The notes: generated from the sequence alone by a model not told the origin. A stretch of DNA of 64,000 nucleotides from Eubacteriales bacterium (GCA_045536125.1 JAZSMX010000050.1:1953-65952), one strand, 5' to 3'; shown: positions 4,973 through 54,503, numbered from the stretch's first letter. Translations and numbers: made by a program.

Positions 4973-4976
4973 AAAA

Positions 4977-28618: not shown

Positions 28619-28658
28619 AGCAAAGAAAAAATGTGTTTCAAATCAGAAAGGGAGGAAA

Positions 28659-29552: not shown

Positions 29553-29567
29553 AAAGGGGGGAATAGA

Positions 29568-32106: not shown

Positions 32107-32817
32107 ATGAAAAAATTACTGGCTGTACTCATGGTTTTGGCGATGGTGGTTGCTGTTTTCGTTGCTTGTGAAGCAGAAGACGCAACTCCCGAGTTTGATC
32201 CCAATGCAAAGTCTGAAGGCTCTATGACCTATGCTCAGTATTCCGAGGCAAAGGTTGACGACGAGGTCGTGATTGAGGGCTTTGTTCAGGCGAAGCAGTC
32301 CTGGTGGGACAACAAGGCAAACGTTTATTTGCAGGATGGAGACGGTGCTTACTTCGTGTATGAATTGGCATGCACTGAGGATGAGTACAAAACGCTGACC
32401 ATCGGAACCAAGATCAAGGTAAAGGGTAGCAAGGGAGAATGGGACGGTGAGGTCGAAGTTATGGACGCAACCTTTGAATTGCTTGAAAGCGATCCTTACG
32501 TTGCAGAGGCACTTGACGTGACCGACCTTCTCGGAAAGGACGATTTGATCAAGCACCAGAATATGTTCGTTACCTTCAAGGATATGACCGTCGAAAAGGT
32601 TTCCTTCAAGAATGACGAGCCCGGTGACGATATCTACGTAACACTGAAAAAAGGCGATGCTTCCTACAGCTTCTGTGTAGAAATGTATCTGACCGGTCCC
32701 GATACGCAGGTTTATAAGGATGTCAGCGCGCTCAAAGAGGGCGATGTGATCGACGTTGAGGGCTTCCTTTACTGGTGGAACGGTCCCAATACCCACATCA
32801 CTTCCGTAGCAAAGTGA
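32107..32817 (+). CDS. lipoprotein with two OB-fold-like halves (function unknown)
   Basis: Lipobox MKKLLAVLMVLAMVVAVFVAC. Two similar beta-rich halves (VVIEGFVQAK...GTKIKVKGSKGEWDG and FVTFKDMTV...GDVIDVEGFLYWWNG). Confidence 0.6.
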   Translation: MKKLLAVLMVLAMVVAVFVACEAEDATPEFDPNAKSEGSMTYAQYSEAKVDDEVVIEGFVQAKQSWWDNKANVYLQDGDGAYFVYELACTEDEYKTLTIGTKIKVKGSKGEWDGEVEVMDATFELLESDPYVAEALDVTDLLGKDDLIKHQNMFVTFKDMTVEKVSFKNDEPGDDIYVTLKKGDASYSFCVEMYLTGPDTQVYKDVSALKEGDVIDVEGFLYWWNGPNTHITSVAK

Positions 32818-35636: not shown

Positions 35637-35742
35637 GATATAAAAAATCTGTACTGCATTTTCACGTTTTGGATTGGTGCATTTTCCGGGATATTCAAGA
35701 ATATTTTGGGATGTTACCAAAGAAAATAAAGGAGAAGAAAAT

Positions 35743-36915: not shown

Positions 36916-36959
36916 TTGTTCGACTCACTCTGTTTTTAGCACAAAAGAATGAAATCATG

Positions 36960-37020
36960 CAAAATCGCACTTTTGTAACGTTGCTTTTTCGCGCGACAGG
37001 TTTACAAAAGTGCGATTTTG
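36960..37020. terminator. long inverted repeat between convergent namZ-like gene and spoVT
   Basis: 19-bp perfect arms CAAAATCGCACTTTTGTAA (36960-36978)/TTACAAAAGTGCGATTTTG (37002-37020) with a 23-nt loop. Confidence 0.55.
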
Positions 37021-37034
37021 TTGATATGCGTGTG

Positions 37035-37592
37035 TTAACTTTCCAATTGACGGCCGAGAAATCCTGCAGCGGTCAGAATCAGCTTGGTTTCCACGGATTC
37101 GGTCGGTGCTTCACGTCTGTTTTCAAAGGGGAGCTCGGAGACGGCGGCAACACATCCCGCAATATCTCCCTCGCTGATGATGGGCATCGCGCATTTTACA
37201 TAGTGAGCACTTCCTTCGGCAAGTACGGCAATCGGCTCTTCACCTTCATGAGCAACGTACAGAGAACGTCCCTCAATGATTTCTTCCAATTCGCGCGAGA
37301 GACGCTTGTCGGTATATTCCTTTTTGGGAACCCCCGCACAGGCAATGATGGCATCTCTGTCACTGATGATGACGGAAAGGGAACAGGTTTTATGAAGCGT
37401 TTCCGCGTACTGGGCGGCAAAGGCTGCAAGCTCTCCGATGGGGGAATACTTTTTGAAAATGACCTCGCCTTCACGGTCTGTATAAATTTCAAGAGGATCG
37501 CCCTCGCGAATGCGCATGGTTCTTCTGATTTCCTTGGGGATAACCACACGGCCGAGGTCGTCGATTCTACGGACTATTCCGGTTGCTTTCAT
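37035..37592 (-). CDS. spoVT: stage V sporulation transcription factor SpoVT (AbrB-type N-domain + GAF-like)
   Basis: MKATGIVRRIDDLGRVVIPKEIRRTMRIREGDPLEI. Start trimmed to 37592 (AAAAGGAG RBS). Confidence 0.9.
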   Translation of the reverse strand: MKATGIVRRIDDLGRVVIPKEIRRTMRIREGDPLEIYTDREGEVIFKKYSPIGELAAFAAQYAETLHKTCSLSVIISDRDAIIACAGVPKKEYTDKRLSRELEEIIEGRSLYVAHEGEEPIAVLAEGSAHYVKCAMPIISEGDIAGCVAAVSELPFENRREAPTESVETKLILTAAGFLGRQLES

Positions 37593-37890
37593 TTGTATAA
37601 ATCTCCTTTTCGTAACGGCACGGTGCGTGGCATCGTGCGGCGTGAAAAAACTGTATGATGGGTATCGCAAGCGATACTTTCACGCCTGATCTCACTTGAT
37701 TTACAGTTTTGTACTGTTAGTATCTGCAAAGTAAGGAGAATTATTCGGTATGATTTTTTAAAGCGGAAAAAATACTCTTTTTTGGCGTAAGACAACCTTT
37801 GTTTTTTATATCAAGCACGCGGGGTGTCCCGCATTAGAGACACCCCTTGATCTTTTCTTTACATCTTGATAACGCTATTTTTGATTTCTT

Positions 37891-40749
37891 TTAACGTTTT
37901 TTCTTACGGATCACTACCCAAGAAACCGCGGCGCCTCCACCTCCAAGAAGCGTCGTGCCAAGTGCGATCAGGACGACCGTGGTCGTAGAATTTTCATTCC
38001 CGTTCTGCTCGTCACTGCCTTTTTGATCTTCCTTGGCGTCCGACTTGTCATCGGCGCTTTCCTCGGCATCGTTTGAGAGTGCAGAAAGCTTTGAACCAAC
38101 CTCTGTTACCGTGTGAGTCTCTTCGCAACGGAGGCATTGGGCGGTTTTTGTTCCATCCTGCTCGGTTGTAGCGTTGTTGTCCGAGTGATATTCTCCGAAA
38201 CTGTGAATTCCGTTACTTGCCGCAACAATCTTGAAGGATAGTGCGTATTCACTTTCCTCGCTTTCTTGCCACGTATAGTTCTGCGGATCTGTCAGCTTGA
38301 GAAGAACCTCATAGCTTCCGGCAGCCACTCCACCGTCGTTCTTTTCAACGGAATAGAGCTCGCTTTGCGCGACGTCAGCCTTTTGTTGGATACAAAGCTC
38401 GGTCTTGTCCGCGATCGTCGGCGGTGTCACGCTCTGCTTTGCGATCTGTACTGTAAAGCTTCCGCACGCGGTTTGATGATGTTCGGCACTTGCCCGATAC
38501 CACACGGTATAGCTACCCGCGTTTTTCAAAGGGGGAAGTGCACCGTATTCTCCATCCTCACTCAAGCTATAAACGAAGGTTACCGTTTGTCCACCCTGTG
38601 CCGATGCGACAGCGGTAAGTGTCACCGTCTGCTCCTTGCCGTTGTAGGTCAACGTATCCTTCTGAGATACCGATACTGCGGAGAGAGATGCGGGAGAGAT
38701 TGACGCACTTGCCGTCGTGGGGATCGTGATCCGATAATTCGAAAGATCTGTACGGGTTGCCAGATATTCCGCGTTGGATGCATCGATCGTCACCGGGATC
38801 GGTTGCTCGGATGCGAGCGCGCTTTCAAAGTGTCCCGTTACACCTGTGACCGTCACAAGCTCTCCTTCAATGCCCGTATCCACGCTCACGCTGACCGTTG
38901 CAGCGGTGCTTCCGTCGTAGAACTTGTCACTGAGCGCGACCGTTGCCGTGACTTCTTTGGGATGAATGACGTAGGTTCCGCTTGCCGAATATCCTTCTAC
39001 TGTCACACGTACGGTATAGCTTCCTGCGTTCTGAGGAAGACCGTCAACAAAGCTCGTTCCGTCATAAGAATATGCGTATTCCACGTCGAAGGGGAAATTT
39101 TCACATGCACCGTTCACAAATGACCACGTGTTCGTTGTTTTGTCTTTCACACTCACCGAGAAGGAAGGCGCACCTGTTTTTCCGTCATAGGTTTTGCTTC
39201 CCGTCACTGAACTTACCCCTGTCACGCGCAGAGTGCTTTTGCCACGGATCGTCAAGGGGATATAGTCGGACGTAGAGAGCGAAGAAAGAAATTTTCCTTC
39301 GTTCAGCGTCACTCTGACGTAATAACTTCCCGGTTCGATCGGTGCGGAGTTCAGGCGAGTCTTGTTACTATCGTAATAAGTGAAGCTCCAGATTTCAGCA
39401 TCCGCAGAGGAAGAAGTAAAGAAAACGTCGACTTGATTTTGTGTTGAAATCGAAACCCGCTTTCCTGTATAATCCTTCACAATCGGAGTCAAGGTGAAGT
39501 TGGGATTGATCAGAGCGATTACACTCTCTGCCGAGCGGTTATTTCCCGCCGCCAGACGAACCCTGATCGAGTTCTGACCCTTGACGTAGTCCAAATGATT
39601 TTTATTGTTTCCGGAGGTATACTCTTCTAAGGTGCGGAACTCGGAGGTACCCAATATGAGATCGGTTCCAAACACTTGCACACGCAAGGGCTTGCCATCA
39701 CCGACGGTAGAATGTAAATCGGATTTTTGATAATTGCTGTTTGAAGAAAGGTAAATCGCGTCGTAGATGGCTTCGACCACTTTTTGGGTGCTCCAGGAAT
39801 AGTCGTAGGCCATCGTTCCGCTGGGTTTGACCTCAATGACAACGGATTCGGTGGTCGCTGCAATCGTATGCGTTGCGTTTTTCGCACCTGCCGTTGAAGA
39901 AAAGCTGATTGATGCGCCCGAGAGCCCTTTGGGGGCACCGTCGACCGAAACGTTGGAAATCGCATACCCGTTCGACGCGTTCAGTGTTACCGTATAGGGA
40001 AGACCGCTGATAACCTGCACGGGGCTGGTCGTTTTTCCGTTGACTGCAATTGTAGCGCCTGTGGGTTGATTGAAGCTGACTGTCGCAAAGTCTACTGCTT
40101 CATAATTCACTGAAAAAAGAAAGCTTGCGTTGACGTTGCGGAAGGTGTAAACGTTTCCGCTCACGCTGCACGTAGCACCTGCATAGCTGACGGTTGCGCG
40201 GTGTCCGGGGACGTCGACCACCTCAAGGGAGAAGGTGTCAGTCGACTTGAATTCCACAGAGCTTACATCCTGCCCGCTGTGTTTGACACCGCCGTAGCCG
40301 GCGGGTGCGCCCGAAATCGAAACGGACGCAATATGACGGATGCGAAGATCGATGACCACCTCTCTCATAACCCATATACCTGTATTCAGATTGGGACATT
40401 CGAAGAGATAGACGTAGTAGTCACCGTCCGAATATTCATGCGTTTTTCCGTCTGTGCTCCAAAACCAACCGGAATTTGAGCTATAGGCATGTGGATGATC
40501 GGTAATATAGGTTTTGGATTGTTCATCGGGGGCATAGTTCGCATGGAGCTCGCTCACACGGTCGTAAAACTGTTGCCCGATGTCCTCATTGGGGTCCAAC
40601 ACCCAGGTGAAGGTTTGATTGCTGAATGAGGACAAATCGTAGTACGGCATTTCAGCTGCCGATGTCTCAAGGGGGAGTATACCGACTGTTAGCGTCAGCA
40701 CTATCGCAAGTGTAAATGTAAAACTCAAGAATTTCGCAATTTTTTTCAT
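37891..40749 (-). CDS. large surface protein with YDG/MBG-type Ig-like repeats and C-terminal TM anchor
   Basis: Signal peptide MKKIAKFLSFTFTLAIVLTLTVGILPLETSAA. Repeats with KTYDGKTGAP, DKFYDGSTAA, LTYNGKEQTV. Acidic stalk, then TTVVLIALGTTLLGGGGAAVSWVVIRKKKR. No LPXTG. Confidence 0.7.
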   Translation of the reverse strand: MKKIAKFLSFTFTLAIVLTLTVGILPLETSAAEMPYYDLSSFSNQTFTWVLDPNEDIGQQFYDRVSELHANYAPDEQSKTYITDHPHAYSSNSGWFWSTDGKTHEYSDGDYYVYLFECPNLNTGIWVMREVVIDLRIRHIASVSISGAPAGYGGVKHSGQDVSSVEFKSTDTFSLEVVDVPGHRATVSYAGATCSVSGNVYTFRNVNASFLFSVNYEAVDFATVSFNQPTGATIAVNGKTTSPVQVISGLPYTVTLNASNGYAISNVSVDGAPKGLSGASISFSSTAGAKNATHTIAATTESVVIEVKPSGTMAYDYSWSTQKVVEAIYDAIYLSSNSNYQKSDLHSTVGDGKPLRVQVFGTDLILGTSEFRTLEEYTSGNNKNHLDYVKGQNSIRVRLAAGNNRSAESVIALINPNFTLTPIVKDYTGKRVSISTQNQVDVFFTSSSADAEIWSFTYYDSNKTRLNSAPIEPGSYYVRVTLNEGKFLSSLSTSDYIPLTIRGKSTLRVTGVSSVTGSKTYDGKTGAPSFSVSVKDKTTNTWSFVNGACENFPFDVEYAYSYDGTSFVDGLPQNAGSYTVRVTVEGYSASGTYVIHPKEVTATVALSDKFYDGSTAATVSVSVDTGIEGELVTVTGVTGHFESALASEQPIPVTIDASNAEYLATRTDLSNYRITIPTTASASISPASLSAVSVSQKDTLTYNGKEQTVTLTAVASAQGGQTVTFVYSLSEDGEYGALPPLKNAGSYTVWYRASAEHHQTACGSFTVQIAKQSVTPPTIADKTELCIQQKADVAQSELYSVEKNDGGVAAGSYEVLLKLTDPQNYTWQESEESEYALSFKIVAASNGIHSFGEYHSDNNATTEQDGTKTAQCLRCEETHTVTEVGSKLSALSNDAEESADDKSDAKEDQKGSDEQNGNENSTTTVVLIALGTTLLGGGGAAVSWVVIRKKKR

Positions 40750-40770
40750 ATGGATTCCTCCCAAATAAAT

Positions 40771-42750: not shown

Positions 42751-43605
42751 ATGAAAAGACAAAGAAAAGTATTGATCATTTGTTCTTTGACGGTCGTTTG
42801 TATGCTTTCCGTTTTGTTTTTCTTCTATATCCGCGCGGATCTTTGGTTTTACCTGGAAGAAACCTTGCGCCCAAAAGGAGAACCGCGTCTTACGGAAACG
42901 GTGATTGATGAGGGAGTTCTTTACTCTTTTGATGAGCTTGCAACGCTCGAAAACGTAGATTGCAACAATACGTTGATGCTTGTCAATCGCGAGAATCCCT
43001 TGCCTGTGGATTACGAAGCGGATATTGTGGAATATAACGGTGCGCGGATGCATCCGCATATGGTGGATGCTTACATAGCTCTTCGTGACCGTGTGCAAGA
43101 AAGAACACATGTGAGAATCTACGTTGCAAGCGATTATCGGACACGGGAGGAGCAGGCGGAGATTCTTTTGGAAAGTGAAGAGGGGACGGCAGCACCTTTG
43201 GGGTGCAGCGAGCATGAAGCGGGGTTGGCGCTTGACGTGTACGCTCCTTATTTTGCGGGGATGGAGTTTTTGCGTTCACCTGCGGGGCGGGACGTAAACC
43301 GTATTTGCAAGGAGCATGGCTTTATCATCCGATATCCGAGAAATAAGGAGAGCGTGACGTCAATTGCGTACGAGCCGTGGCATCTTCGGTACGTTGGACT
43401 TCCGCATGCGACCGTGATGACGGATGCGGACTTGACACTGGAGGAATACGTTGCGTATCTGACTCCCGAAATATGGTTTCAATGTGAGGAATATCTGATC
43501 CTACGCACCGAAAAAGATTCTGTTCTTTTACCTTACGGATGGGAATCCTGCGAATTTTCTCCCGATAACACAGGCTATCGTATTATCACCGTGAAAATGT
43601 CTTAA
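42751..43605 (+). CDS. membrane-anchored D-alanyl-D-alanine carboxypeptidase, VanY/M15B family
   Basis: N-terminal TM; SDYRTREEQ, SEHEAGLALDV and EPWHLRYVG zinc-ligand blocks. Confidence 0.85.
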   Translation: MKRQRKVLIICSLTVVCMLSVLFFFYIRADLWFYLEETLRPKGEPRLTETVIDEGVLYSFDELATLENVDCNNTLMLVNRENPLPVDYEADIVEYNGARMHPHMVDAYIALRDRVQERTHVRIYVASDYRTREEQAEILLESEEGTAAPLGCSEHEAGLALDVYAPYFAGMEFLRSPAGRDVNRICKEHGFIIRYPRNKESVTSIAYEPWHLRYVGLPHATVMTDADLTLEEYVAYLTPEIWFQCEEYLILRTEKDSVLLPYGWESCEFSPDNTGYRIITVKMS

Positions 43606-43642
43606 AATTTCTAAAAAAACGAAAAAAAATGCCAAAAAAGGC

Positions 43643-43672
43643 TTGACAAACACTATAAGAACATGCTATAAT
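43643..43672 (+). promoter_or_regulatory. promoter of rplU-prp-rpmA
   Basis: TTGACA (43643-43648), 18 nt, TATAAT (43667-43672). Confidence 0.6.
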
Positions 43673-43761
43673 AATATGCCGCTTGAAAAAGGCTTTTTTA
43701 AGTGTGTCCAAAAAACACCGCCTTTATGTCAGCGAGTCTATCAGAAAGAGAGGTGCTTTTC
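43673..43761 (+). promoter_or_regulatory. ~85-nt 5' leader of the L21 operon (possible ribosomal-protein autoregulatory leader)
   Basis: Position matches the L21 leader known in Firmicutes. I could not confirm the consensus structure by eye. Confidence 0.25.
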
Positions 43762-44073
43762 GTGTTTGCAGTTATCGAAACCGGCGGAAAGCAGTACAAA
43801 GTAATCGAGCAGGACATTATTTTTGTTGAAAAGCTCGACGTTAACGAAGGAGACGAAATCGTTTTCGACAGCGTTAAGGCATTGTCCAACGACAACGGCT
43901 TTAAGGTTGGTGCTCCCAACGTAGACGGTGCCAAGGTTACTGCCAAGGTTCTTAAGAACGGTAAGAACAAGAAAATCTACGTGATGAAGTACAAGCCGAA
44001 GAAGAACGAGAAGAAGAAGATCGGTCACAGACAGCCTTTTACGAAGGTTCAGATTGTGAAGATCGAGGGCTGA
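43762..44073 (+). CDS. rplU: 50S ribosomal protein L21
   Basis: GTG start, [25 protein letters not shown]. Track start trimmed. Confidence 0.95.
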
Positions 44074-44092
44074 TTGTAAAATCAGTGCGGAC

Positions 44093-44455
44093 ATGACCAA
44101 AATCGTGTTTTTCAGAAGCGGTGGAGTTTTCTACGGCTTCGAAGAGCAAGGCCACACAGGGTATGGGGAAGCAGGCGACGATATTCTTTGCGCTGCCATT
44201 TCCTCCATGACAATGTTCCTGATCAATACCATTGAGGTTGCATATGCTTCTTCCGTCGATTATACGATTGAAGACGACGATACACGAATTCGTGTATGTG
44301 CCAAAGCGGCACTTCCCGAATTTGAATCGGACGATTATAAGCGCTATGCTGTTTCGGGGATTATGATGGGGTATTACTGTCAGCTCAGTGACATGCTTGA
44401 GGAGTATGCGGATTATCTTGACGTTTCCGTGATAGATAAGCCGTACGAGAAATAA
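44093..44455 (+). CDS. prp: ribosomal-processing cysteine protease Prp
   Basis: [19 protein letters not shown] (His/Cys dyad), located between rplU and rpmA. Confidence 0.9.
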
Positions 44456-44507
44456 AACCGCGCAATCCGAAGATCCGCAAGGGTCAGAAAAATTTAGGAG
44501 GATAAGA

Positions 44508-44789
44508 ATGATGTTAAAGCTCAGTTTACAGTTCTTTGCTCATAAAAAAGGTGTCGGTTCTACCAAGAACGGTCGTGACAGTGAGTCCAAGCGCCTTGGC
44601 GTGAAGAAGGCTGACGGTCAGCCCGTTGTTGCCGGCAACATCATCGTAAGACAGAGAGGAAGCGCAGTTTGCGCCGGCGAAAACGTTGGCGTAGGCAAGG
44701 ACTACACTCTTTATGCTTTGATCGATGGTAAGGTGAAGTTTGAGCACAAGACCAAGGATCAGAAGAAGGTCAGCGTATACGCAGACTGA
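44508..44789 (+). CDS. rpmA: 50S ribosomal protein L27 with Prp-cleaved N-terminal extension
   Basis: [33 protein letters not shown]. Confidence 0.95.
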
Positions 44790-44807
44790 TTCTTTCTGAC
44801 AGAAATA

Positions 44808-44846
44808 TACGGCACAGGCGAGAATGCCTGTGCCGTATATTTTTTT
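44808..44846. terminator. bidirectional terminator between rpmA and the spoVB-like gene
   Basis: 12-bp stem TACGGCACAGGC/GCCTGTGCCGTA followed by TATTTTTTT. Confidence 0.7.
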
Positions 44847-46422
44847 ATGATTCGTTTTTCTTAACAAACAAGCCCTTGATCCAAAAGCGATCCTCGCGGT
44901 CAATGCCCCCCGTAAGAATGAGAAGAGCGATATAGACGGCTAAGGTTGTCAGACAGTGAAGAATGATGGAAAGCACGGCGTTTGATATTTGAAGCGATGG
45001 AAGACTCCAAAGTGCTTTCAAAACGCACGTGGAAGCAACGATCGAAAAGAGTGGCTTGTAGATCCATTTGAAAAGTCTGATCGGTGGATGCGTGATTGAA
45101 AGCAAATGAGTGATGCTGCAAACAGTGTTGAAAAATTCAGAAAAATAAATGGCAAAAATATATCCACCGATTCCGTACCTTGGGATCAGAAGCCATACGA
45201 GAATCACCGAGATCAATGCGTCAGCGATATTGATTTTCATTGAATAGACCTGTTCTCCAAGCCCCTTCATCATCGCATCCGTTGCGGTGTCCACGTACAT
45301 GATCGGAATTAGGGGGGCGATCATGCGAATGTATTTTGCTGCGGAGGTGCCCGGATAAAGAGCCTCTCCCAGTTCTCCCGAAAAACAAATGAGGATTCCT
45401 GCGACACCGATAGAAAAAATAAGTGAAAGTGACCAGACGCGTGAGACGATATATCGGATACGATGCTCCCCCTTCTGAATGCTTGACTCTGCAAGCTCGG
45501 GGACCAGAAGCCCCGAAAACGAAGAGATCAGCGCGGCAGGATAGAGGATGATGGGCATTGCCATGCTGTGAATGCTTCCGTATGCGATCAGCGCGGCGGA
45601 ATGAGACGATCCGCTGTTGCGAAGTCCTTCGGGAATCAAAACGTGCTGAAGTGTGATCAATCCGGAACGAATGTAGGTGGTCAGCGCGATCGGAAGAGTA
45701 ATGGACAAGAGCTTTCGACCTTCTGCTTTGGCGCTGTCCCGATCTTTGGTTTTGAAATTTTTTCTTTGATCCGAGCAGTAAAGAAAAAGAGCGACCAAAA
45801 AAGATAGCAGCTCCGCGGCGACACCGCCCAACACCAAGGCGCAGCAGGTGCTTTCCACTCCAAACGGAAGCAACCAAGCTAAAAGTTGCATGGTCGCAAA
45901 GATTTTGATCCCTTGCTCCATGACCTGGACGATTGCGTTTTTATAGGGGCGTCTGACGGCAGTAAAATATCCGCTCCATGCGGATGAAAGAGAAATGAGG
46001 GGAAGTGTGATGCCCAAAAGACGAAGAGATGAGACCGTTCGTGCATCCTTTAACCATACGTTCCCGATGATCTCCGAAAAGCCGACGAGGAGTAGCGAGG
46101 AAAGAAGTCCGAACAAGAGCGCATAGGCGCTGGCGCGTTTCATTGCGGGGCATACGCGTTCTCTTTTGTTTTCGCCGACAGAGTCCACAACGAGCCGCGT
46201 GACTCCGAGATGAATTCCCGAGGTTGCCAGAGTCAGAGCAAAGCCGTATACCCCCGACATCAAAGAAAACAGTCCCATCGCTTCCGCTCCCGCACGGTTG
46301 GAGACGTAGACTTGAAACGTAACGCCTACTGTGCGAATGCACAAAGAAGCGCAGCTGAGCAACAGCGCATTCCAGAACACTTGCTTTGCGTGTGATCTCA
46401 TTGATTTGAGTACCTCTTCCAT
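44845..46422 (-). CDS. MOP-superfamily flippase, SpoVB-like
   Basis: 525 aa with about 14 TM and an N-terminus similar in style to SpoVB/MurJ family proteins. The start could be 46401 (MRSHAKQ). Confidence 0.7.
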   Translation of the reverse strand: MEEVLKSMRSHAKQVFWNALLLSCASLCIRTVGVTFQVYVSNRAGAEAMGLFSLMSGVYGFALTLATSGIHLGVTRLVVDSVGENKRERVCPAMKRASAYALLFGLLSSLLLVGFSEIIGNVWLKDARTVSSLRLLGITLPLISLSSAWSGYFTAVRRPYKNAIVQVMEQGIKIFATMQLLAWLLPFGVESTCCALVLGGVAAELLSFLVALFLYCSDQRKNFKTKDRDSAKAEGRKLLSITLPIALTTYIRSGLITLQHVLIPEGLRNSGSSHSAALIAYGSIHSMAMPIILYPAALISSFSGLLVPELAESSIQKGEHRIRYIVSRVWSLSLIFSIGVAGILICFSGELGEALYPGTSAAKYIRMIAPLIPIMYVDTATDAMMKGLGEQVYSMKINIADALISVILVWLLIPRYGIGGYIFAIYFSEFFNTVCSITHLLSITHPPIRLFKWIYKPLFSIVASTCVLKALWSLPSLQISNAVLSIILHCLTTLAVYIALLILTGGIDREDRFWIKGLFVKKNES

Positions 46423-46462
46423 TGTTTATAAATTATTGTATGAAGAGGAAGGGGGGAATATT

Positions 46463-47332
46463 TTATTTTTTGAGAACTTCCTGGATAGTTTGCTGTGTAC
46501 GAAATTCTCTGGGGCGGACACCGACGTGTCTCAAAAACAGAGTGGAAAAATAATGCTCGTTTGAAAAACAGAGCTTGGACGAGATTTCCTTGGAGGATAG
46601 CTGTGTATTCAGAAGAAGCATTTTTGCCTTTTCAAGCTTGGCATTGATCAGATATTCGTAAGGGGTGATCCCGTATCTTTTTTTGAAGGAACGGATGATA
46701 GAAGATTTGGAAATGTGCAAAGTTGCGGCGAGCTGATCTAAATTCACCTTTTTGAAAACGGAATTGTCCAGCTCTTCACGAATGGAGTATTCCGTAGAAC
46801 CGAATTCGCGGTTCAACGTTACGGATACCGCTTGAATGATTTTATGAAGACATTCGGAAAGGGTATAATCCGTATCCGAGTCGCTCATTTGATTTTTTGC
46901 GATTTCAAGAGCTGCTTCAAAATATCTTTGCGCGTTGGTACCTGAATATACACCCGATTCAATATTGTAGGTGTCTAAAAAAGAATCGAAATAGTCGGCA
47001 TAGTAGTTAAACCATATTTTTTTCCAAGGGGTTTTCTTGTTGGCTCGGTAATATTGATTTTGAGAGGAACGAACGATAAAAACGTCCCCAGCATGCACGG
47101 GAATCCATTTTTCGTTGATCAGAACCTCTCCATCACCCTCGATGACGTACTCGACCAGATTGACCTTTTCTGCCCCCTTACTGTGCGGTATTTCACGTTT
47201 TATGTCATAACGCTGGCTGGGAAGGGTAATGCCCATTAAAATGTATTTGTAGGGCGTCCGTCCCCTTGGAAGATAAAGATAGCTTTTTTCAAAGCTCGGA
47301 TAAATAGGTCTGCTCGTCATCGTACGTTGCAT
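46463..47332 (-). CDS. AraC family transcriptional regulator (cupin + HTH)
   Basis: C-terminal double HTH (LAATLHISKSSIIRSFKKRYGITPYEYL...FSNEHYFSTLFLRHVGVRPREF). Start trimmed to MQRTM (AAGAGGT RBS). Confidence 0.8.
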   Translation of the reverse strand: MQRTMTSRPIYPSFEKSYLYLPRGRTPYKYILMGITLPSQRYDIKREIPHSKGAEKVNLVEYVIEGDGEVLINEKWIPVHAGDVFIVRSSQNQYYRANKKTPWKKIWFNYYADYFDSFLDTYNIESGVYSGTNAQRYFEAALEIAKNQMSDSDTDYTLSECLHKIIQAVSVTLNREFGSTEYSIREELDNSVFKKVNLDQLAATLHISKSSIIRSFKKRYGITPYEYLINAKLEKAKMLLLNTQLSSKEISSKLCFSNEHYFSTLFLRHVGVRPREFRTQQTIQEVLKK

Positions 47333-47515
47333 TTTATACCTCTTTTCGAAATCTGACATCCAAATTCATTTCTTATCATGGTATTATTTATTATAGCATA
47401 CAGATTTTTAAAAAACAATACGTTTCGTCCTTTTTCGTGATTTTTTGAAATATTGAAATGATCATATAATATATGTTTTTGATTATTTTATGTAAATTTA
47501 TGTTTCTAAAGTGTA

Positions 47516-47544
47516 TTGAACTTTGCAAGGAGAAATGATACAAT
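47516..47544 (+). promoter_or_regulatory. promoter of the 1952-aa gene
   Basis: TTGAAC (47516-47521), 17 nt, TACAAT (47539-47544), in an AT-rich divergent region. Confidence 0.5.
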
Positions 47545-47598
47545 TAAAATACGGATTATTGTTGATCCACATCAAAAAAGAAAAAAGGAGAAGTACCC

Positions 47599-50500
47599 AT
47601 GAAAATCAAACGGATAAGCAGGGCGATGTCATTCTTGCTGGTCATTGCGATGTGTATTCCCATGATTGTGATTCCTTCCTTTGCGGCGGAATCATCTGTG
47701 TCTGAGGAAGAAGACGTATACCTTTATGAAAACACCTTTGAAACCTATACAGAGGGGCATACTTGGACAGCAGCTGACAATTATTTTGAAATCAATCCCA
47801 ACAATAAGCTCTCCGGTGCTACTTCTAAACATACGGTGATCAAAAACCCTGAGGATACCTCCGATTTGGTTTGGAGCTTTCCCATGGAATCTGCCAATAA
47901 TCAAAATCATCTTTATTTGGCAACAAACGGTTTTTCTTATACCATTACCCCCAAAATTATTTTTGAATTGGATTTTTATGTCCCTGAAGATGCGTACGGC
48001 TCCTTTTTCTTGGAATTCCGCAGTGCTAAATATACCGGCGGAAGCGGAAATCCCTCTGCTCTTGCAATTAAAATGGGAACCTCGTCAAGCACTGCCGATA
48101 CGGTGGTTTTGGAGGATCGCCAAAACAGTTCGAATTACAAGCAGCACACGATTCATCGTGGGGAATGGTATCACCTAAGCTATGCATGGAATATGGTGAA
48201 CGGAACTTACCGCACCTGCTTGAACGAGGAACTTGTTTTTTCGGGAAAGAGATATACTAACGTTGATTTTACCAACGCATCTTTCGCGGACGTTAACCTG
48301 TATAGCTATAACACGTACTGTGGCGCCTGGGGCGGCAATCTTCTCATAGATGATATCAGAATCTCCGATAACAGTGCAAAATATTTTCCTGTATATGAAA
48401 ACACCTTTGAAAGCTACACGGTTGGCAACGCAATGAGTGATACCTCCTCGGGAAAGGGATTTTCGAGTGATCTGTCTTCTCTTGGTTATACCGTTGCAGC
48501 AGATCCAAAAAACACCGATAATAAGGTGTTGGGCGTTCCCGTGAGCGATGCGGCAGCGGATAACTATAAGGCTGCAACAACGGAGTATACCTCGCCTTCC
48601 GACTATAAGGATGCAGTGGATTTTACATTCACAGAGGATATCTATATTCCTTCGGATGCGGTCGGAAGTGCTAAAATTCAGGGGTGGGAACGGTATAGTG
48701 CCGATTCCAACGTGTGGCATGACTTCTTCTATATCAATTTTACAACCGCTTCCTCTGCGGCGACTGTCGAATTCCCGAGCAACTTTGCTTACAGTGTTAA
48801 GGGAAGCAATCTCAAGCTGAACCGTGACACATGGTATCACTTGACTGTTTCCTTGAAGCAGACGACGGGAGACATGACGGTTTTGATAGACGGTGAGATT
48901 GTCTTTGTCGGTAATTTGGGTGCACCGATCAACATTGCTCAATTCTTCATTGCGAGAATGAGAACGGCATCCGCATGCGGTGCTACTCTGAACGGCACTA
49001 TTTACTTGGACAATATTCGAATTTATAAGGAGTATTTCAAGAACGGAGAAATGACCGAAACCCGTACTTATAAGTGGAGCAACGATTTTGAAAAATACAC
49101 TGTTGATGCATTGATCACCGACACCTCGTCGGGAAGTGGATTCAGCTCAAGCCTTGCCCAAACTTATAAGTGTACCACAACCTATGATCCTTTGAATGCT
49201 GAAAATAAGGTCATGAACGTTCCCACTGAGAACGGAAACAACTATGTCGGACAAACCTATGACTGGAGAAACCAGGGTGATTCTTATACAAAAATGACAC
49301 ATCTGGTGTTCGAGCAGGATATTTATATTCCCGGTGCGACAACAGGCAAGACGAGGGTACAGGGATGGCAAAAGATCCCCAGCGAGGGCTTCCGCTCCTT
49401 CTATGATATCGATTTCAGTACGGCGAATGAGGATGCGATGATCATTCCGATTGGGACGACGTCCTACGTAGGAGCATTGGCGCTTTCTAGAGATACGTGG
49501 CACAAGACAACCTTTTCTCTGGTTCAAAGCACGGGAGAATATTATATTTTGATCGACGGCAACGTAGCCGCAGTCGGAATACTCGGCAATACGTCGATGC
49601 AGCTCTGCACGTATTTCTTCTTCCGCGCGTATGCGGGTGCTTCGGGATCCGTTTATCTTGATAATATGCATATCTACGAGGGCTTCGATAAAGGTGTTAT
49701 GCACGATTCTGCTCTTTACAGAAATACCTTTGAATCCTACACAAAGGATTTTGAATGGAGCTCTGCCGACAGCTATTTTGATGCCAATGTCAATGCGCCT
49801 ATCACAGACGCATCGTTGAAGCATAAGGTCGTTTCCGATCCGACCAATGCCGATAATCTTGTATGGCAGATTCCCTTAACGGAGGCAAATCTGAATAACA
49901 ATAAGGCTTATCTCAGCTCCGCATCTTCGGTCGATTATCAAAAGACTTCTATCGTTACCTTGAGCATGAAGGTTTACGTACCCGCGGGAGCAAAGGGCGA
50001 CGTAAAGATGCAGGGACATTCGGATGCGGAAGGCTTCAACGATCTTTATCATATTTTGATGAAGGGAACGTCCGCTTCCGTGTGGGTGGACGATAGCGTG
50101 GCATATACGGGAGATCTGAATCTGACTCTCGATCAATGGCACAATATCGACTATGCCTTGAACCTTGTCAGCGGTGAATTCAAGCTCATGATCGACGGAG
50201 TCATCGCTTATTCTGGCAATATAGGTCTTAAAAATCGTGTTTGGGACGGCTGGATCATCGCCAAGCTTCAAAGCACGGATCGTGTATCCGAGCATAACGG
50301 TACAATGCTTGTGGATGATATTGTTATCGAAGCCGCTCTTGCGGACGGAGAAATGGCAACAACCTCTTATCTGTATGAAAATACGATGGAGCAATACTGG
50401 AGCGAATATGTCTTGGAAGGAGATGCGTGGTTTAGCTCCAACATCAATGACGGAAATCACGGTCACATGATCGTAACCGATCCCACGAATGCTGCGAACA

Positions 50501-53457
50501 AGGTATGGAAGGTTCCCATGGGGGCAGAAAATGCCGACAATGTCAATTCGGCATTGAAAATTGGCAATAATGCGATTTCTTACAGCAATACGCCGCACAT
50601 TGTTTTTGAGATCGACATGTACGTTCCAACGGGCGCTACAGGCTCTTTCCAGATGGAAGCATGGTCGAGAGATCGCTCGGATAGCTTCCAGTACTTCTAT
50701 ACGGTGAACGTCACCTCTGTCGGTGCAAAGATTGCCCCTTACGGAACCTATTCCTATGCAGGTGAGAACCTGGAGCTTGCAAGAGATACCTGGTACAAAA
50801 TCGCCTTTGCTTTGGATATGGTGACGGGCGGATATACGATTTACGTGGACGGTGACGTCGCCGCTACGGGTATTACGGGGCAGACCAATCTTTTGGTATC
50901 GAACGATTCCTTTATGATAGCAAAGGTAGAAAGCTCTCGCGCGGGCACGGGATATGTTCTTTTTGATGATCTCCTCATCTACAAGGGCGAGAAGCCCATG
51001 AACGTGGTTCTTGGTGATGAAACAAGTGAAGATTTTTCTGACCTTGACGGCGGTGTGTATATTCCGACGGTCAATGACGCTGCACAAATGAAGCATTCCG
51101 TGTATTCCTATACGGTTTACGATCAAATTGTTCTGCAGGCAGATTATTTCATTGACGGAGATGCGGAGGGTGTACTTGAAAGTAAATTCAATTCCTACCG
51201 TTACCTGGTTTCAAACATCTGGGGAATCGGTAAGGAGCTTTCCCTTTATTCCATAGATCTTTCAAGCGGAAAGATCTATCAGAAGCAACAGCCCACGATC
51301 TATGGAAATCTCAATGTCGGAGAGAAAAATACCGTCACCGCGGTTCTTGATCTGAATACGGGCGCATACAGCGTTTACGTCAACGGATTCGGGGCGTTCA
51401 ATGCAAAGGTCGGACACACCAATCTCACACTTGGAGCTGACGAATCGCAGTACTGGCAGATCGTAAGCGTTGCAAGCAATACGCTTACGGGAACCGTTTA
51501 TGCGGACAATGCTTCCATTCGTCTTTTGGGGGATGATGAGTTGATCCTTATCAATACCGATTCCGACAAGACGCTCAAGTATATCGACGTGACCGTAGGT
51601 GGAAAAACCGTTCGCACGGGTGTCTCCTCGCTCTTTATGCCCGCCGACACCTCCTATACAGCGGAAGCGGCATATTTTAACACAAGTGATTACAGCGGAA
51701 TTATTACCACAGAGCAAAAGATCTCCATTCGTCTCAAGCAGGACAGCGGCTTGCGTTTTGCGACGCTCATCAATGATAAGGAGTCCTTTGACGAACTCTT
51801 TTCCATGGCTGGTGAGGAAATCGCGGACGTTTACTTCAGCACGCTGATTACTCCCGTTGATTATTTGAATGCCGTAGATCAGGTCTTTACCAAAGAGGCG
51901 CTCAAGACGCTTGTAGGTGTCAATTCCGGTATCACCTATCTCGATGTTAAGGGGACGCACGGATATTATATCTCGGAGGCGCTTCTTGATAACGATCCTT
52001 CGACCACTCATTTTGTCGGATCGATCGTTAATATCAAGCAACAAAATTATGATCGTTCCTTTGCAGCGATCGGCTACGTTGAAGTTTTGCTGTTGACGGG
52101 CGAGGTGATCACCCTTTATTCCTCACAATGGCATTCTTCAAATATCAAGTCAGCTGCCTTGCTCGTCAGAAATGCCGGGGACGGTTATTATGACAGCCTG
52201 GATGAAAAGAACAAAGCGTTGATTGATTCCTTCGCCGACTACATGGCACCCGTGACCGAAATTGTTGCGGATTCCATTCCCACGCTTTCTACCGAAGGAT
52301 CTCTCACAGCAACTACGTTTACCGAAGAAAATGGAACCTACTACGTCTATAAAAACGTAACCGTGAATGAAATCGCAGCCTATAAGGATGCGCTGCTCAA
52401 TGCCGGTTTTACGCTCTATACCTCTCATAATCTGGACTCTGCAGAGTTTGCTACATACACGGGAAACACAAAATCTGTCCGCCTGTTCTGCTATCCCGCC
52501 GAAAGCGAATTCCGCATTTTGGTCACCGACCTTGCATACCTTCCCGAACGTGAGAAGCCTACGTACGAGGCGATTGAGGGATTGGTGCCTACCGACACAA
52601 TGATCAAATCCAACGGAGTCGACAAGATTGGAGCAATGTCTCATGTTCTGCAATTCGTTGACGGAAGCTTTGCTGTCGTGGATGGTGGTTGCGAGGACGC
52701 AGAGGATGCATATAACCTGCTTACGTACCTTTGGGAGAACAAGCCGGCAAGTGATGCAAAGCCTCGCGTTACCTGGTTCCTTACACACGCGCATAACGAT
52801 CACGTGGATCTGCCCAACAGCTTTTTGGAGGCATACCATGAGTTCATCAATCTGGAAATGGTGGTTTATAACTATCCGGATTACGATACCTTCACTGTCA
52901 CCTACAAAGAAGCTGAGCATTCCCGTGTACGTCAGGAAAGAATAGAGCGCATTCTTTCGGAATATTATCCCAACACAGTTAAATATATCTGCCACACCGG
53001 AGACAAGCTGTATCTCCCCGGTTGCACCGTAGATATTCTGATGACCTATCTGGATTTCTATCCGGATACCTTTGCGGGGATCAACGAGACCTGTGCTGTG
53101 TTCAAGTTTACCTTTGATAGTGGCTATGAGCTTTTGATCACAGGCGATATCTATCCCAATAACTGTAGCTTCCTGACGACCAACTATCCCACCGTCCTCA
53201 AAAGTGACGTAGTTCAAACGCCTCACCATGGACGCGACGGTGCGGATGCAGCCTTCTATAATGCGATTGTGGATGAATTGAAGATCCTCATGTGGAGCAA
53301 CTCCGCCACATTCTTTGAGGAGCGCGCGGGAAGCGCGAACGACGCCTACGATTGGAGCTTTAACAGTATCGTGCTTGATGCTGCCGGTGTTTCGCACTAT
53401 AACGCAAGCCAAACGGTCACCGTCAACATGAACGATCTTTCTGTCACCGTAAAGTAA
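47599..53457 (+). CDS. giant secreted protein: six LamG-like modules, shared middle domain, ComEC-type MBL hydrolase domain
   Basis: Signal peptide ...IPSFA/AESS. Six modules each bounded by YENTFE.YT-like and (Y/L)xD(D/N)xxI motifs. LTHAHNDHVD (His1 codon 52786) and TPHHGRDG. AAAGGAG RBS. Confidence 0.8.
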   Translation: MKIKRISRAMSFLLVIAMCIPMIVIPSFAAESSVSEEEDVYLYENTFETYTEGHTWTAADNYFEINPNNKLSGATSKHTVIKNPEDTSDLVWSFPMESANNQNHLYLATNGFSYTITPKIIFELDFYVPEDAYGSFFLEFRSAKYTGGSGNPSALAIKMGTSSSTADTVVLEDRQNSSNYKQHTIHRGEWYHLSYAWNMVNGTYRTCLNEELVFSGKRYTNVDFTNASFADVNLYSYNTYCGAWGGNLLIDDIRISDNSAKYFPVYENTFESYTVGNAMSDTSSGKGFSSDLSSLGYTVAADPKNTDNKVLGVPVSDAAADNYKAATTEYTSPSDYKDAVDFTFTEDIYIPSDAVGSAKIQGWERYSADSNVWHDFFYINFTTASSAATVEFPSNFAYSVKGSNLKLNRDTWYHLTVSLKQTTGDMTVLIDGEIVFVGNLGAPINIAQFFIARMRTASACGATLNGTIYLDNIRIYKEYFKNGEMTETRTYKWSNDFEKYTVDALITDTSSGSGFSSSLAQTYKCTTTYDPLNAENKVMNVPTENGNNYVGQTYDWRNQGDSYTKMTHLVFEQDIYIPGATTGKTRVQGWQKIPSEGFRSFYDIDFSTANEDAMIIPIGTTSYVGALALSRDTWHKTTFSLVQSTGEYYILIDGNVAAVGILGNTSMQLCTYFFFRAYAGASGSVYLDNMHIYEGFDKGVMHDSALYRNTFESYTKDFEWSSADSYFDANVNAPITDASLKHKVVSDPTNADNLVWQIPLTEANLNNNKAYLSSASSVDYQKTSIVTLSMKVYVPAGAKGDVKMQGHSDAEGFNDLYHILMKGTSASVWVDDSVAYTGDLNLTLDQWHNIDYALNLVSGEFKLMIDGVIAYSGNIGLKNRVWDGWIIAKLQSTDRVSEHNGTMLVDDIVIEAALADGEMATTSYLYENTMEQYWSEYVLEGDAWFSSNINDGNHGHMIVTDPTNAANKVWKVPMGAENADNVNSALKIGNNAISYSNTPHIVFEIDMYVPTGATGSFQMEAWSRDRSDSFQYFYTVNVTSVGAKIAPYGTYSYAGENLELARDTWYKIAFALDMVTGGYTIYVDGDVAATGITGQTNLLVSNDSFMIAKVESSRAGTGYVLFDDLLIYKGEKPMNVVLGDETSEDFSDLDGGVYIPTVNDAAQMKHSVYSYTVYDQIVLQADYFIDGDAEGVLESKFNSYRYLVSNIWGIGKELSLYSIDLSSGKIYQKQQPTIYGNLNVGEKNTVTAVLDLNTGAYSVYVNGFGAFNAKVGHTNLTLGADESQYWQIVSVASNTLTGTVYADNASIRLLGDDELILINTDSDKTLKYIDVTVGGKTVRTGVSSLFMPADTSYTAEAAYFNTSDYSGIITTEQKISIRLKQDSGLRFATLINDKESFDELFSMAGEEIADVYFSTLITPVDYLNAVDQVFTKEALKTLVGVNSGITYLDVKGTHGYYISEALLDNDPSTTHFVGSIVNIKQQNYDRSFAAIGYVEVLLLTGEVITLYSSQWHSSNIKSAALLVRNAGDGYYDSLDEKNKALIDSFADYMAPVTEIVADSIPTLSTEGSLTATTFTEENGTYYVYKNVTVNEIAAYKDALLNAGFTLYTSHNLDSAEFATYTGNTKSVRLFCYPAESEFRILVTDLAYLPEREKPTYEAIEGLVPTDTMIKSNGVDKIGAMSHVLQFVDGSFAVVDGGCEDAEDAYNLLTYLWENKPASDAKPRVTWFLTHAHNDHVDLPNSFLEAYHEFINLEMVVYNYPDYDTFTVTYKEAEHSRVRQERIERILSEYYPNTVKYICHTGDKLYLPGCTVDILMTYLDFYPDTFAGINETCAVFKFTFDSGYELLITGDIYPNNCSFLTTNYPTVLKSDVVQTPHHGRDGADAAFYNAIVDELKILMWSNSATFFEERAGSANDAYDWSFNSIVLDAAGVSHYNASQTVTVNMNDLSVTVK

Positions 53458-53599: not shown

Positions 53600-53617
53600 T
53601 GACATAAGATCAAAAAA

Positions 53618-53660
53618 ACAAGGGATCCCATCGCAATCAGCGATGGGATCCCTTGTTTTG
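53618..53660. terminator. strong bidirectional terminator
   Basis: 17-bp perfect stem ACAAGGGATCCCATCGC/GCGATGGGATCCCTTGT with a 5-nt loop. A7 upstream and TTTTG downstream. Confidence 0.75.
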
Positions 53661-53666
53661 TGACGG

Positions 53667-54503
53667 TTATTGAGAGCGCTTTTCGGCTGTGTATTTTGAG
53701 GGGGAGATGCCCGTGTTTTTCTTGAAAAAGACGGATAAATAAGCAGGAGAGGAAAATCCCATCATTGATGAAATTTCGGAAATTCTGTATCCGTCGTTCA
53801 GCAGTCTGCGGATCTCTTTCACACGCAAAGAAGCGAAATACGTCATCGGTCCTTCTCCCGTATAGGTGTGAAATAGCTTTTTGACGTAGCTGATGCTGAC
53901 ATGATGGAGTGACGCAAGCTTGTCAAGCGTCAAGGGCTCATGGATGTGTTCGTTCATCGTTTTTACAAGATGGCGGTATTCCTCAGCCCCTGTGTTTTTG
54001 TTCAGACTTTTTTGTGAAGCGGAGTGGAGAGAGAGGGAAAGTAAGAAGCTTTCCAATCGATGCCTTGCGGCGGATGCCTCACATCTCATGTTCTCGTCCA
54101 AGGCTCTTTCTTCGGGATGATCGTAAAAATAAAGTAAGGGGGAAAAGAGTGTGCGGTACTCTGTCATCTGTTCTTCTGAAAGTGAAAAGACACCTTTTTT
54201 CAGTGACTCGGGGAGAGTTCCTTCGTGTGCAAAGGAAAGAATGATCACGTGAGGAGAAGTCCCACCGGTGCTTTTGATACGGTGGAATTCATTCGGGGCG
54301 TGGAGGATCATTTCACTGTCGCGCAAAATATACGAACGGTCATCCTCTACTACCTCAACAGCACCTTCAAGAACGGTGACGATCTCCCAAAAATTGTGAA
54401 GCTCGCCCTTGAATATAAAATCACTGTCCCAGTTGTAGTTGATGGCAGAATAAAGTGCCGTGATACGAAAAGGAGTATCGATTTCGTGAGTTTTGTGTGG
54501 CAT
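53667..54503 (-). CDS. AraC family transcriptional regulator (cupin + HTH)
   Basis: 278 aa with HTH region LASLHHVSISYVKKLFHTYTGEGPMTYF...GFSSPAYLSVFFKKNTGISPSKY. Confidence 0.85.
   Translation of the reverse strand: MPHKTHEIDTPFRITALYSAINYNWDSDFIFKGELHNFWEIVTVLEGAVEVVEDDRSYILRDSEMILHAPNEFHRIKSTGGTSPHVIILSFAHEGTLPESLKKGVFSLSEEQMTEYRTLFSPLLYFYDHPEERALDENMRCEASAARHRLESFLLSLSLHSASQKSLNKNTGAEEYRHLVKTMNEHIHEPLTLDKLASLHHVSISYVKKLFHTYTGEGPMTYFASLRVKEIRRLLNDGYRISEISSMMGFSSPAYLSVFFKKNTGISPSKYTAEKRSQ

Follow-up and report, generated by a model that had tools for sequence, protein, structure and literature searches.

Organization of the gene

We analyzed a 64,000-nucleotide stretch of DNA from a Eubacteriales bacterium (GCA_045536125.1, JAZSMX010000050.1:1953-65952; hereafter the window), focusing on one large gene – the big gene – that encodes a protein of 1952 amino acids. 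A preceding annotation made without database searches (the sequence-only reading) had described this protein as an array of six diverged LamG-like modules joined to a ComEC-type metallo-beta-lactamase (MBL) hydrolase. The parts are of known kinds – concanavalin A (ConA)-like modules and a ComEC-type MBL – and multi-modular secreted enzymes are frequent in gut Firmicutes. We consider three things new: that an MBL resembling the ComEC C-terminal domain (CTD) serves as the catalytic part of a secreted enzyme decorated with lectin modules, the size of the unnamed clade behind this MBL, and the extreme, six-module form of the architecture. The elements that frame the gene are:

46463..47359, minus strand: AraC-family regulator with cupin sensor and HTH_18 domain, divergent to the big gene (HTH_18 1.3e-18, AraC_binding 7e-8)
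47516..47544, plus strand: promoter-like site TTGAAC-17-TACAAT with TG, a match to the consensus alone (consensus scan)
47599..47685, plus strand: Sec-type signal peptide, residues 1-29, with a putative cleavage site at SFA/AE (read from the translation and a Kyte-Doolittle scan)
53615..53659, no strand assigned: hairpin with a perfect 20-bp stem (AAAACAAGGGATCCCATCGC/GCGATGGGATCCCTTGTTTT), A and T runs at its flanks (terminator scan)

The protein is encoded by a single uninterrupted open reading frame (ORF; 47599..53457, plus strand) with an ATG start and a GGAG ribosome-binding site (~47587-47590) ~9 nt 5' of it. The 239-bp intergenic region between the AraC gene and the big gene holds promoter-like sites. 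At the other end, the hairpin sits between the stop codons of the big gene and a convergent AraC gene (53667-54503) and is probably a bidirectional terminator for both. The big gene appears to be monocistronic, standing alone. We rejected a compositional anomaly of the kind left by horizontal transfer, as the GC content of the gene equals that of its flanks (45-48% across the gene and both sides).

Intact relatives are present in separate assemblies: P0003 (1958 amino acids, 61% identity, from the NCBI metagenome-assembled genome [MAG] GCA_052844955.1), the orthologue P0002 (2164 amino acids, 63% identity, JGI metagenome) and P0012 (2265 amino acids, Logan assembly). These relatives rule out an assembly artefact as the source of the long ORF, and its description as one 1952-residue ORF stands. 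The same is true of its description as a Sec-exported protein that lacks a wall or membrane anchor: the N-terminal MKIKRISRAMSFLLVIAMCIPMIVIPSFA/AE stretch is the sole hydrophobic segment of the protein (Kyte-Doolittle scan), and neither an LPXTG motif nor an anchor domain was found in the translation or by Pfam scan. Whole-protein Pfam and NCBIfam scans returned zero matches above threshold.

Six diverged modules with a predicted jelly-roll fold

We built a module hidden Markov model (HMM) from 16 copies of modules 1-5 out of three orthologues (alignment A2). This HMM detects six domains in the 1952-residue protein:

47719..48366, plus strand: ConA-like module 1, residues 41-256 (module HMM E=3.8e-72; Laminin_G_3 sub-threshold, E=0.022, 15.4 bits)
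48388..49029, plus strand: ConA-like module 2, residues 264-477 (module HMM E=4.5e-80; Laminin_G_3 E=2.8e-4, 21.5 bits)
49069..49680, plus strand: ConA-like module 3, residues 491-694 (module HMM E=1.8e-76)
49714..50328, plus strand: ConA-like module 4, residues 706-910 (module HMM E=7.6e-78)
50368..50985, plus strand: ConA-like module 5, residues 924-1129 (AlphaFold2 [AF2] model; Laminin_G_3 E=1.2e-5, 26.0 bits)
51013..51525, plus strand: ConA-like module 6, divergent, residues 1139-1309 (module HMM E=1.9e-8 over residues 1159-1307)

These boundaries match the six tandem modules of the sequence-only reading, and every string that it quoted as opening or closing a module is present in the translation. 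Modules 1-5 are 22-40% identical to one another, with BLASTP E-values down to 1e-34 (module 3 is 35-40% identical to modules 2 and 5). The sixth had been called the most divergent, in agreement with its module HMM score (E=1.9e-8, compared with 3.8e-72 to 4.5e-80 for modules 1-5). Aligned by hhalign with the module 1-5 profile, it gives a probability of 97.3% and E=2.2e-11, and profile comparison thus identifies it as a true, divergent sixth copy.

Individual modules are 58-78% identical to their positional counterparts in orthologues – module 1 in P0003, at 40%, is an exception – and are as conserved between orthologues as the catalytic domain (59-63%). Because modules are closer to these counterparts than to their neighbours within the protein, the identities indicate that the array is old and that its individual modules have been maintained separately. 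An old duplication with no DNA-level repeat had been proposed, and the longest DNA match among modules is 37 nt at ~73% identity. We rejected a recent repeat expansion on these two grounds, the lack of a DNA repeat and the positional orthology of the modules. P0002 has one additional module, inserted after module 1.

No module reaches the gathering score of Pfam Laminin_G_3 (PF13385; 27.6 bits). Module 5 comes nearest, at 26.0 bits, and modules 3, 4 and 6, as well as the whole protein, have no Laminin_G_3 match at all. The AF2 model of module 5 (predicted local distance difference test [pLDDT] 83, predicted template modelling score [pTM] 0.83) is all-beta, with 13 strands. Foldseek finds 186 PDB matches for it with E<=1e-3, and the 50 highest listed are without exception ConA-like lectin, glucanase or lyase-type domains (E ~6e-6, probability 1.0), with TM-scores up to 0.61 (Cip1). 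They include the galactocerebrosidase lectin domain, clostridial neurotoxin HcN, sialidase lectin, CBM40, galectin, calreticulin and PL7 lyases. The modules are thus predicted to be two-sheet, ConA-like beta jelly rolls. As Laminin_G_3 stays below the Pfam threshold, 'LamG-like' holds as a statement about the fold and not as a Pfam assignment.

Seven positions are invariant across the 16 aligned module copies (N5, P39, P87, G92, W142, G154 and D200). Most of them fall in the first or the last strand, and they look structural. A conserved constellation of catalytic-type residues was not found among the same 16 copies, so we read the modules as putative binding or spacer domains rather than enzymes.

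A middle domain shared with an SGNH hydrolase

Between the modules and the C-terminal unit lies a domain that recurs elsewhere in the window:

51526..52281, plus strand: middle domain, residues 1310-1561, also present in the window paralogue, in P0012 and P0011 and in two ORFs at locus L035
33295..35559, plus strand: paralogous secreted protein in which a ConA domain similar to module 6 and the middle domain are followed by an SGNH/GDSL hydrolase (BLASTP E=5e-14)

The middle domain has the conserved motifs GLRF, GTxIxP and FVGSIxNI...NYxR...GY. It has no match in Pfam or, by profile search, in the PDB, and AF2 models it at pLDDT <50. Its recurrence with these motifs marks it as a real, conserved domain.

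The sequence-only reading had noted a domain shared with the ORF at 33295. The sharing stands, although the shared stretch is longer than described: BLASTP aligns the ORF to residues 1214-1509 of the 1952-residue protein, a range that takes in the C-terminal portion of module 6 as well as the middle domain. Middle-domain and module 6 HMMs match this ORF at 9e-82 and 4e-64, values that are partly circular given that it is one of the five sequences from which the HMMs were built. Its hydrolase (Lipase_GDSL_2, 2.4e-7, 31.9 bits, slightly under the 32.9-bit cut-off) occupies the place that the MBL holds in the 1952-residue protein. Since the paralogue has both a counterpart of module 6 and the middle domain joined to an SGNH hydrolase instead of an MBL, the two together are a targeting cassette that carries different hydrolases.

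Locus L035, from a Ruminococcus MAG, encodes two ~600-amino acid proteins (68-1972 and 3736-5580) with a C-terminal middle domain and otherwise without a Pfam-recognisable domain. They adjoin two MBL-family genes.

A C-terminal unit resembling the C-terminal domain of ComEC

The C-terminal unit consists of a small alpha/beta domain followed by the MBL. We located the MBL motifs by alignment and by a motif census:

52282..52545, plus strand: small alpha/beta domain, residues ~1562-1649 (AF2 pLDDT >90; two strands, a helix and four strands)
52546..53457, plus strand: MBL-fold binuclear metallo-hydrolase domain, residues ~1650-1952 plus the stop codon (AF2 pLDDT >90)
52681-52683, plus strand: MBL motif I, D1695
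52786-52803, plus strand: MBL motif II, H1730-x-H1732-x-D1734-H1735 (HAHNDH)
53083-53085, plus strand: MBL motif III, N1829, with Asn replacing His
53146-53148, plus strand: MBL motif IV, D1850 (TGD)
53221-53232, plus strand: MBL motif V, PHHG, residues 1875-1878 (H1876/H1877)

Both a small alpha/beta domain and an MBL fold had been proposed here, and both are modelled with confidence. The complete HxHxDH motif reported from the sequence is present as HAHNDH at residues 1730-1735. Foldseek matches the C-terminal model to MBL enzymes (E=5e-8 to 1e-3), among them 3bv6, the UlaG-like 2wym, RNase J, RNase Z and PqqB. Pfam Lactamase_B (PF00753) stays below its gathering score when run on the C-terminal piece (13.3 vs 22.7 bits, E=0.082), a threshold that many relatives pass.

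The ComEC CTD is an Mn-dependent phosphodiesterase/nuclease in which Asn replaces the motif III His and Asp replaces one motif II His, giving HxDxDH (PMC8579336). Taken singly, our sequence gives a weak ComEC signal (TIGR00361, 16 bits against a 190-bit cut-off; phmmer E ~1e-3). When family profiles are compared with PDB sequences, six ComEC CTDs rank first (E=2e-8 to 1e-5). The phosphorylcholine esterase Pce/CbpE (1wra) follows at E=0.16 with its whole domain aligned, arylsulfatase 8gyg and YjcS lie at E=0.04-0.2, and RNase J is likewise not significant. In the profile alignment with 9ic4, 9vcb and other ComEC structures, N1829-x-x-C/S, TGD1850 and PHHG fall on the ComEC NNxS...D...PHHG pattern.

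No Pfam Competence or DUF4131 match, and no hydrophobic segment beyond the signal peptide, was found in the protein. Because it is without the competence channel and the OB domain, it is not a ComEC. The label 'ComEC-type' therefore holds for the profile matches, the motif III Asn and the PHHG motif, which aligns with that of ComEC as had been suggested, and not for the canonical HxHxDH or the missing channel and OB domain. On its motifs and model, the MBL is intact and ComEC-CTD-like, and is predicted to be a catalytically competent two-metal hydrolase.

A large family of alpha/beta + MBL proteins

For the family of the C-terminal unit, we searched 1.84 billion representatives exhaustively by HMMER, using an alpha/beta+MBL profile; family sizes refer to clusters at 50% identity. 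The profile matched 11761 representatives at E<=1e-3, of which 3287 reached E<=1e-10 and 1593 reached E<=1e-30. Top matches mostly cover both parts, including profile positions 2-90 (the alpha/beta domain), and range from 290 to 2265 amino acids in length. A typical member has 290-650 amino acids and is standalone or carries one accessory domain. By this comparison, the C-terminal 390 residues of the 1952-residue protein amount to a full-length family member.

Among GTDB species genomes, we kept the best 80 loci. All are from gut or rumen Clostridia (Lachnospiraceae, Oscillospiraceae, Acutalibacteraceae and others), and all but one (Eubacterium sp. CAG:180) are labelled as MAGs. Source annotations, where present, read 'hypothetical protein' (e.g., MBQ7336149.1), and the literature that we searched on COG2333 and on MBLs with NPCBM holds no description of the family.

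The active site is nearly invariant across 158 family proteins: D1695 is conserved in 157, H1730 in 156, D1734 in 157, H1735 in 157, N1829 in 154, D1850 in 156, H1876 in 153 and H1877 in 154. Position 1732 varies, with His in 125 proteins and Asp in 31, such that ~20% have the ComEC-like HxDxDH. By this census, the clade has the ComEC motif III, and its motif II occurs in either the canonical or the ComEC form. The His/Asp switch at 1732 might track a change in metal preference (Mn vs Zn).

Domains fused to the alpha/beta+MBL unit include NPCBM (6 of the 54 proteins scanned), Flg_new, Beta_helix and Pectate_lyase_5. Laminin_G_3 is fused to the family MBL in P0013 and P0012 (four copies in the latter), P0011 has two GDSL/SGNH domains, and P0025 and P0028 contain two or three MBLs in tandem. 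Family genes also form tandem paralogue arrays, with four at L013 (1715-10815) and five, the maximum, at L036. Among their 126 neighbour genes at MAG loci, the most frequent Pfam families are Lactamase_B (nine further genes), AraC HTH_18 (eight) and sugar-type ABC permeases (seven); BNR_2, Polysacc_deac_1, a GH106-like protein and a CBM_4_9 protein are also present. The sequence-only reading had recognized no described family with a binding array on a ComEC-like MBL. We likewise find no characterized family with this architecture, but the theme itself is widespread – 1593 clusters at E<=1e-30, with fusions.

One of the 54 scanned family proteins (alignment A7) has strong Pfam ubiquitin (7e-23) and Rad60-SLD matches. 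It could be from a eukaryotic or chimeric contig or represent a genuine ubiquitin-like fusion.

A rare architecture paired with an AraC regulator

The combination of ConA-like array, middle domain and MBL was found only in this protein, P0002, P0003 and, in part, P0012. A word-index homologue search returned nothing for the module profile and only the two orthologues for the full protein. Metagenome-contig scans, made with the middle-domain profile and with the protein segment from module 5 to the middle domain, yielded no relatives. In P0012, four bona fide Laminin_G_3 domains, together with a Metallophos domain of the calcineurin-like kind, precede modules 4-6, the middle domain and the MBL.

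A divergent cupin-AraC gene lies directly upstream of the big gene at all four loci with this architecture. At loci L001 and L002, it is an orthologue (65-77% identity) of the window's regulator in the same position; at L083, a different AraC gene takes this place. The pair precedes a VanY-L21-Prp-L27-flippase run at L001 (157-10920), while in the window (42751-47359 compared) it follows that run, with a second AraC gene and a GH109-like gene coming next. The AraC gene and the big gene thus seem to move as a two-gene unit. Of the two neighbours whose conservation the sequence-only reading had put in question, the AraC gene is conserved and the GH109-like gene is not. As the remaining neighbours are not conserved, we take the functional unit to be the regulator plus the enzyme. 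We rejected a functional link with VanY, the ribosomal genes or GH109, given the different placement of the pair in the window and at L001.

The P0012 gene (L083, 10001-16798) encodes two distinct metallo-phosphoesterase-type domains within one secreted polypeptide. It adjoins a xylose-type operon (FGGY kinase, GH3 and xylose isomerase) that has its own AraC gene.

A putative secreted phosphodiesterase directed to a glycan

We propose, at about even confidence, that the big gene encodes an AraC-controlled secreted enzyme of the phosphodiesterase type whose lectin array keeps it on a polymeric substrate, probably a glycan. The divergent AraC regulator would sense a small molecule and switch on the gene. 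The six non-catalytic jelly-roll modules would then hold the secreted enzyme on an extracellular polymer, most likely a glycan or cell-surface glycopolymer. There, a metal-bridged hydroxide could cleave a phosphodiester or related ester bond that is part of the polymer or attached to it.

Phosphodiester chemistry is suggested by analogy with the ComEC CTD and with Pce/CbpE, an MBL that removes phosphorylcholine from teichoic acid (PMC8579336, PMC10704324). Gut Clostridia also make sugar-specific GlcNAc-6-phosphocholine/phosphoethanolamine phosphodiesterases (PMC10704324). We favour a glycan or glycopolymer over nucleic acid because the accessory domains are of carbohydrate-binding type, because SGNH esterases are fused to family members or sit on the paralogous cassette (the latter beside an ABC sugar transporter and NamZ), because family genes lie in AraC and ABC-permease contexts, and because the paralogue expansions suggest many substrates. 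The lack of a detected nucleic-acid-binding domain and the uniform acidity of the protein point the same way. The mature protein has a net charge of -120, and each domain has an isoelectric point (pI) of 4.3-4.9, which counts weakly against a polyanionic nucleic-acid substrate.

Several observations weigh against this proposal. The acidity argument is weak and would apply just as much to polyanionic teichoic acids. That the modules bind carbohydrate is a prediction drawn from their modelled fold, with Laminin_G_3 sub-threshold. Enrichment in the family neighbourhoods is modest (AraC 8 and ABC permeases 7 of 126), and most neighbours are Pfam-blank. The family is uncharacterized, with neither a name nor a Pfam model; its sole characterized close relative, the ComEC CTD, is a nuclease, and similarity to ComEC is mostly limited to the C-terminal half of the MBL. 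In haloarchaea, a COG2333 MBL is fused to a secreted thermonuclease (PMC3929857). The best Foldseek match of the MBL is an arylsulfatase (8gyg, E=5e-8, 13-16% identity).

The main rival explanation is an extracellular nuclease, in which the ComEC-type MBL would degrade DNA or RNA from the environment, either to scavenge nucleotides or phosphate or to remodel biofilms, and the modules would tether it to cells or particles. We regard this as unlikely, though a serious contender. The closest characterized relatives being Mn-dependent nucleases (PMC8579336), the shared ComEC-specific motif III Asn, the HxDxDH form in a fifth of the family, the high Foldseek ranks of RNase J and RNase Z, the haloarchaeal fusions and the Metallophos domain added in P0012 all speak for it. 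Yet no OB, HhH, SNase or lamin-tail domain was detected in this protein or in the family members scanned, and the features that do accompany the MBL are carbohydrate-binding-type domains, SGNH esterases fused or paralogous, a cupin-AraC partner gene and sugar ABC permeases near family genes. Tandem paralogue expansions suggest many substrates rather than one, and every domain is strongly acidic, with 0 of 157 family MBL units having a pI >7.5. We consider it improbable that the MBL hydrolyses another ester, as an S4/S3-like sulfatase on sulfated glycans, a lactonase or a thioesterase. The arylsulfatase at the top of the Foldseek ranking, the UlaG-like and PqqB folds next to it, the weak profile matches to 8gyg and YjcS, the existence of S3 and S4 MBL sulfatase families (PMC5066984) and the heavy sulfation of gut glycans would fit such an activity, but sulfatase profile similarity is not significant and ComEC similarity is. 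Since S4 enzymes cluster with RNase Z (PMC5066984), the 8gyg fold match may reflect the generic MBL core. SulfAtlas assigns S3/S4 enzymes by >=30% identity to SdsA1 or AtsA plus HxHxDH (PMC5066984); here, HxHxDH is present, and the 13-16% identity and a profile E of 0.04-0.14 were measured to 8gyg rather than to SdsA1/AtsA. The motif III Asn and PHHG are the ComEC phosphodiesterase signature (PMC8579336), which speaks against a sulfatase.

Two further explanations reassign the roles of the domains. That the jelly rolls are themselves enzymes (PL7, GH16 or Cip1-like) in a multi-catalytic polysaccharidase, with the MBL as an accessory, seems very improbable. Module 5 does match PL7 alginate lyases (3gne, 5zqi and 1uai) and finds its best TM-score with Cip1, but lectin-type domains (galactocerebrosidase lectin domain, neurotoxin HcN, CBM40 and galectin) match equally, sequence identity to any enzyme is 8-16%, and the 16 module copies conserve neither an Arg/Gln/His/Tyr nor a Glu-x-Asp-x-x-Glu set. 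Scarcely credible, in our view, is a non-enzymatic adhesin or surface protein with the MBL as a degenerate binding module. The protein is large, repetitive and secreted, with lectin-fold repeats, and in Streptococcus pneumoniae the CTD of ComEC may serve as a guide that has no activity (PMC8579336). Against this, the metal-ligand and catalytic motifs are intact and near-invariant among the 158 relatives, the MBL is confidently modelled (pLDDT >90), and the protein has no anchor domain.

Extending the proposal of a glycan-directed phosphodiesterase from this protein to its clade, we tentatively suggest a broader possibility, which we think rather less than likely to hold: the alpha/beta+MBL clade of gut Clostridia may consist of carbohydrate-active 'de-decorating' enzymes of a class not recognized before. 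As two-metal phosphodiesterases derived from ComEC, its members would strip phosphodiester-linked groups from complex glycans or cleave them, alongside SGNH de-acylases carried by the same cassette. The six-module protein would then be a multivalent, multi-specific version in which each module has its own epitope. Candidate groups are phosphocholine, phosphoethanolamine, glycerol or ribitol phosphate and sugar-1-phosphate bridges, such as those of teichoic acids, capsules and phosphoglycans.

If the proposal is true, a DNA-uptake nuclease domain has been redeployed in gut and rumen Clostridia as a diversified secreted family acting on non-DNA polymers. Current carbohydrate-enzyme catalogues have, to our knowledge, a blind spot for decorations that are attached to glycans and cell-wall polymers through phosphodiesters. 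The 1952-residue protein, its paired regulator and the SGNH paralogue with the same cassette provide a well-defined entry point to the substrate. If the enzymes are instead nucleases, they would still represent a new, abundant class of extracellular DNases/RNases in the gut microbiome.

Surroundings of the paralogous gene

The gene for the SGNH paralogue (33295-35559, plus strand) lies directly 3' of a sugar-type ABC transporter (27359-32020: ATPase, two permeases and a binding protein) and is followed by a gene for a NamZ exo-beta-N-acetylmuramidase (35674-36915). These surroundings may constitute a cell-wall-glycan salvage locus. Three Pfam-unmatched ORFs flank the transporter, SGNH and NamZ genes: 24724-27390, 32107-32817 and 36858-37658, all on the plus strand and encoding 888, 236 and 266 amino acids. 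The first of these overlaps the ABC ATPase gene at its start. A 957-amino acid ORF (37891-40764, minus strand), which separates the NamZ locus from a gene for a LuxR/GerE-type regulator, has MBG and YDG domains and likely encodes a large surface protein.

Comparison with known systems

Among solved structures, the CTD of ComEC/Rec2 (COG2333; Moorella thermoacetica and Bacillus subtilis; 9ic4 and 9vcb) is the best profile match. Like our MBL, it faces the cell exterior and has Asn at motif III, the Asp of TGD at motif IV and PHHG. The two differ at motif II, with the canonical HAHNDH here and HPDADH in ComEC 9ic4. Unlike ComEC, the 1952-residue protein is soluble and secreted, lacks a competence channel and an OB-fold domain, carries six lectin-fold modules, has a clade-specific alpha/beta domain N-terminal to the MBL and is found in an AraC context rather than with competence genes.

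The modules share the jelly-roll fold of Laminin_G_3/ConA-like lectin domains and carbohydrate-binding modules of secreted glycan-active enzymes (sialidase lectin, CBM40 and galactocerebrosidase lectin). Modules 1, 2 and 5 have sub-threshold PF13385 matches, and in P0012 bona fide Laminin_G_3 domains are joined to modules of this family. Six tandem diverged copies are unusual, and the module family was found in four proteins only.

Pce/CbpE of S. pneumoniae (1wra/2bib) differs from our protein in several respects: the sequence relation is not significant (profile E=0.16), Pce has His at motif III where Asn is present here (PMC8579336), and its choline-binding repeats stand where our protein has ConA-like modules and neither CW_binding_1 nor another Pfam repeat. 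Its organization is nevertheless alike, in that both are secreted binuclear MBLs with a canonical HxHxDH and an attached repeat array. Pce/CbpE is thus a precedent for an MBL that acts on a glycan-linked phosphodiester, with repeats that bind a cell-wall glycopolymer (PMC8579336, PMC10704324).

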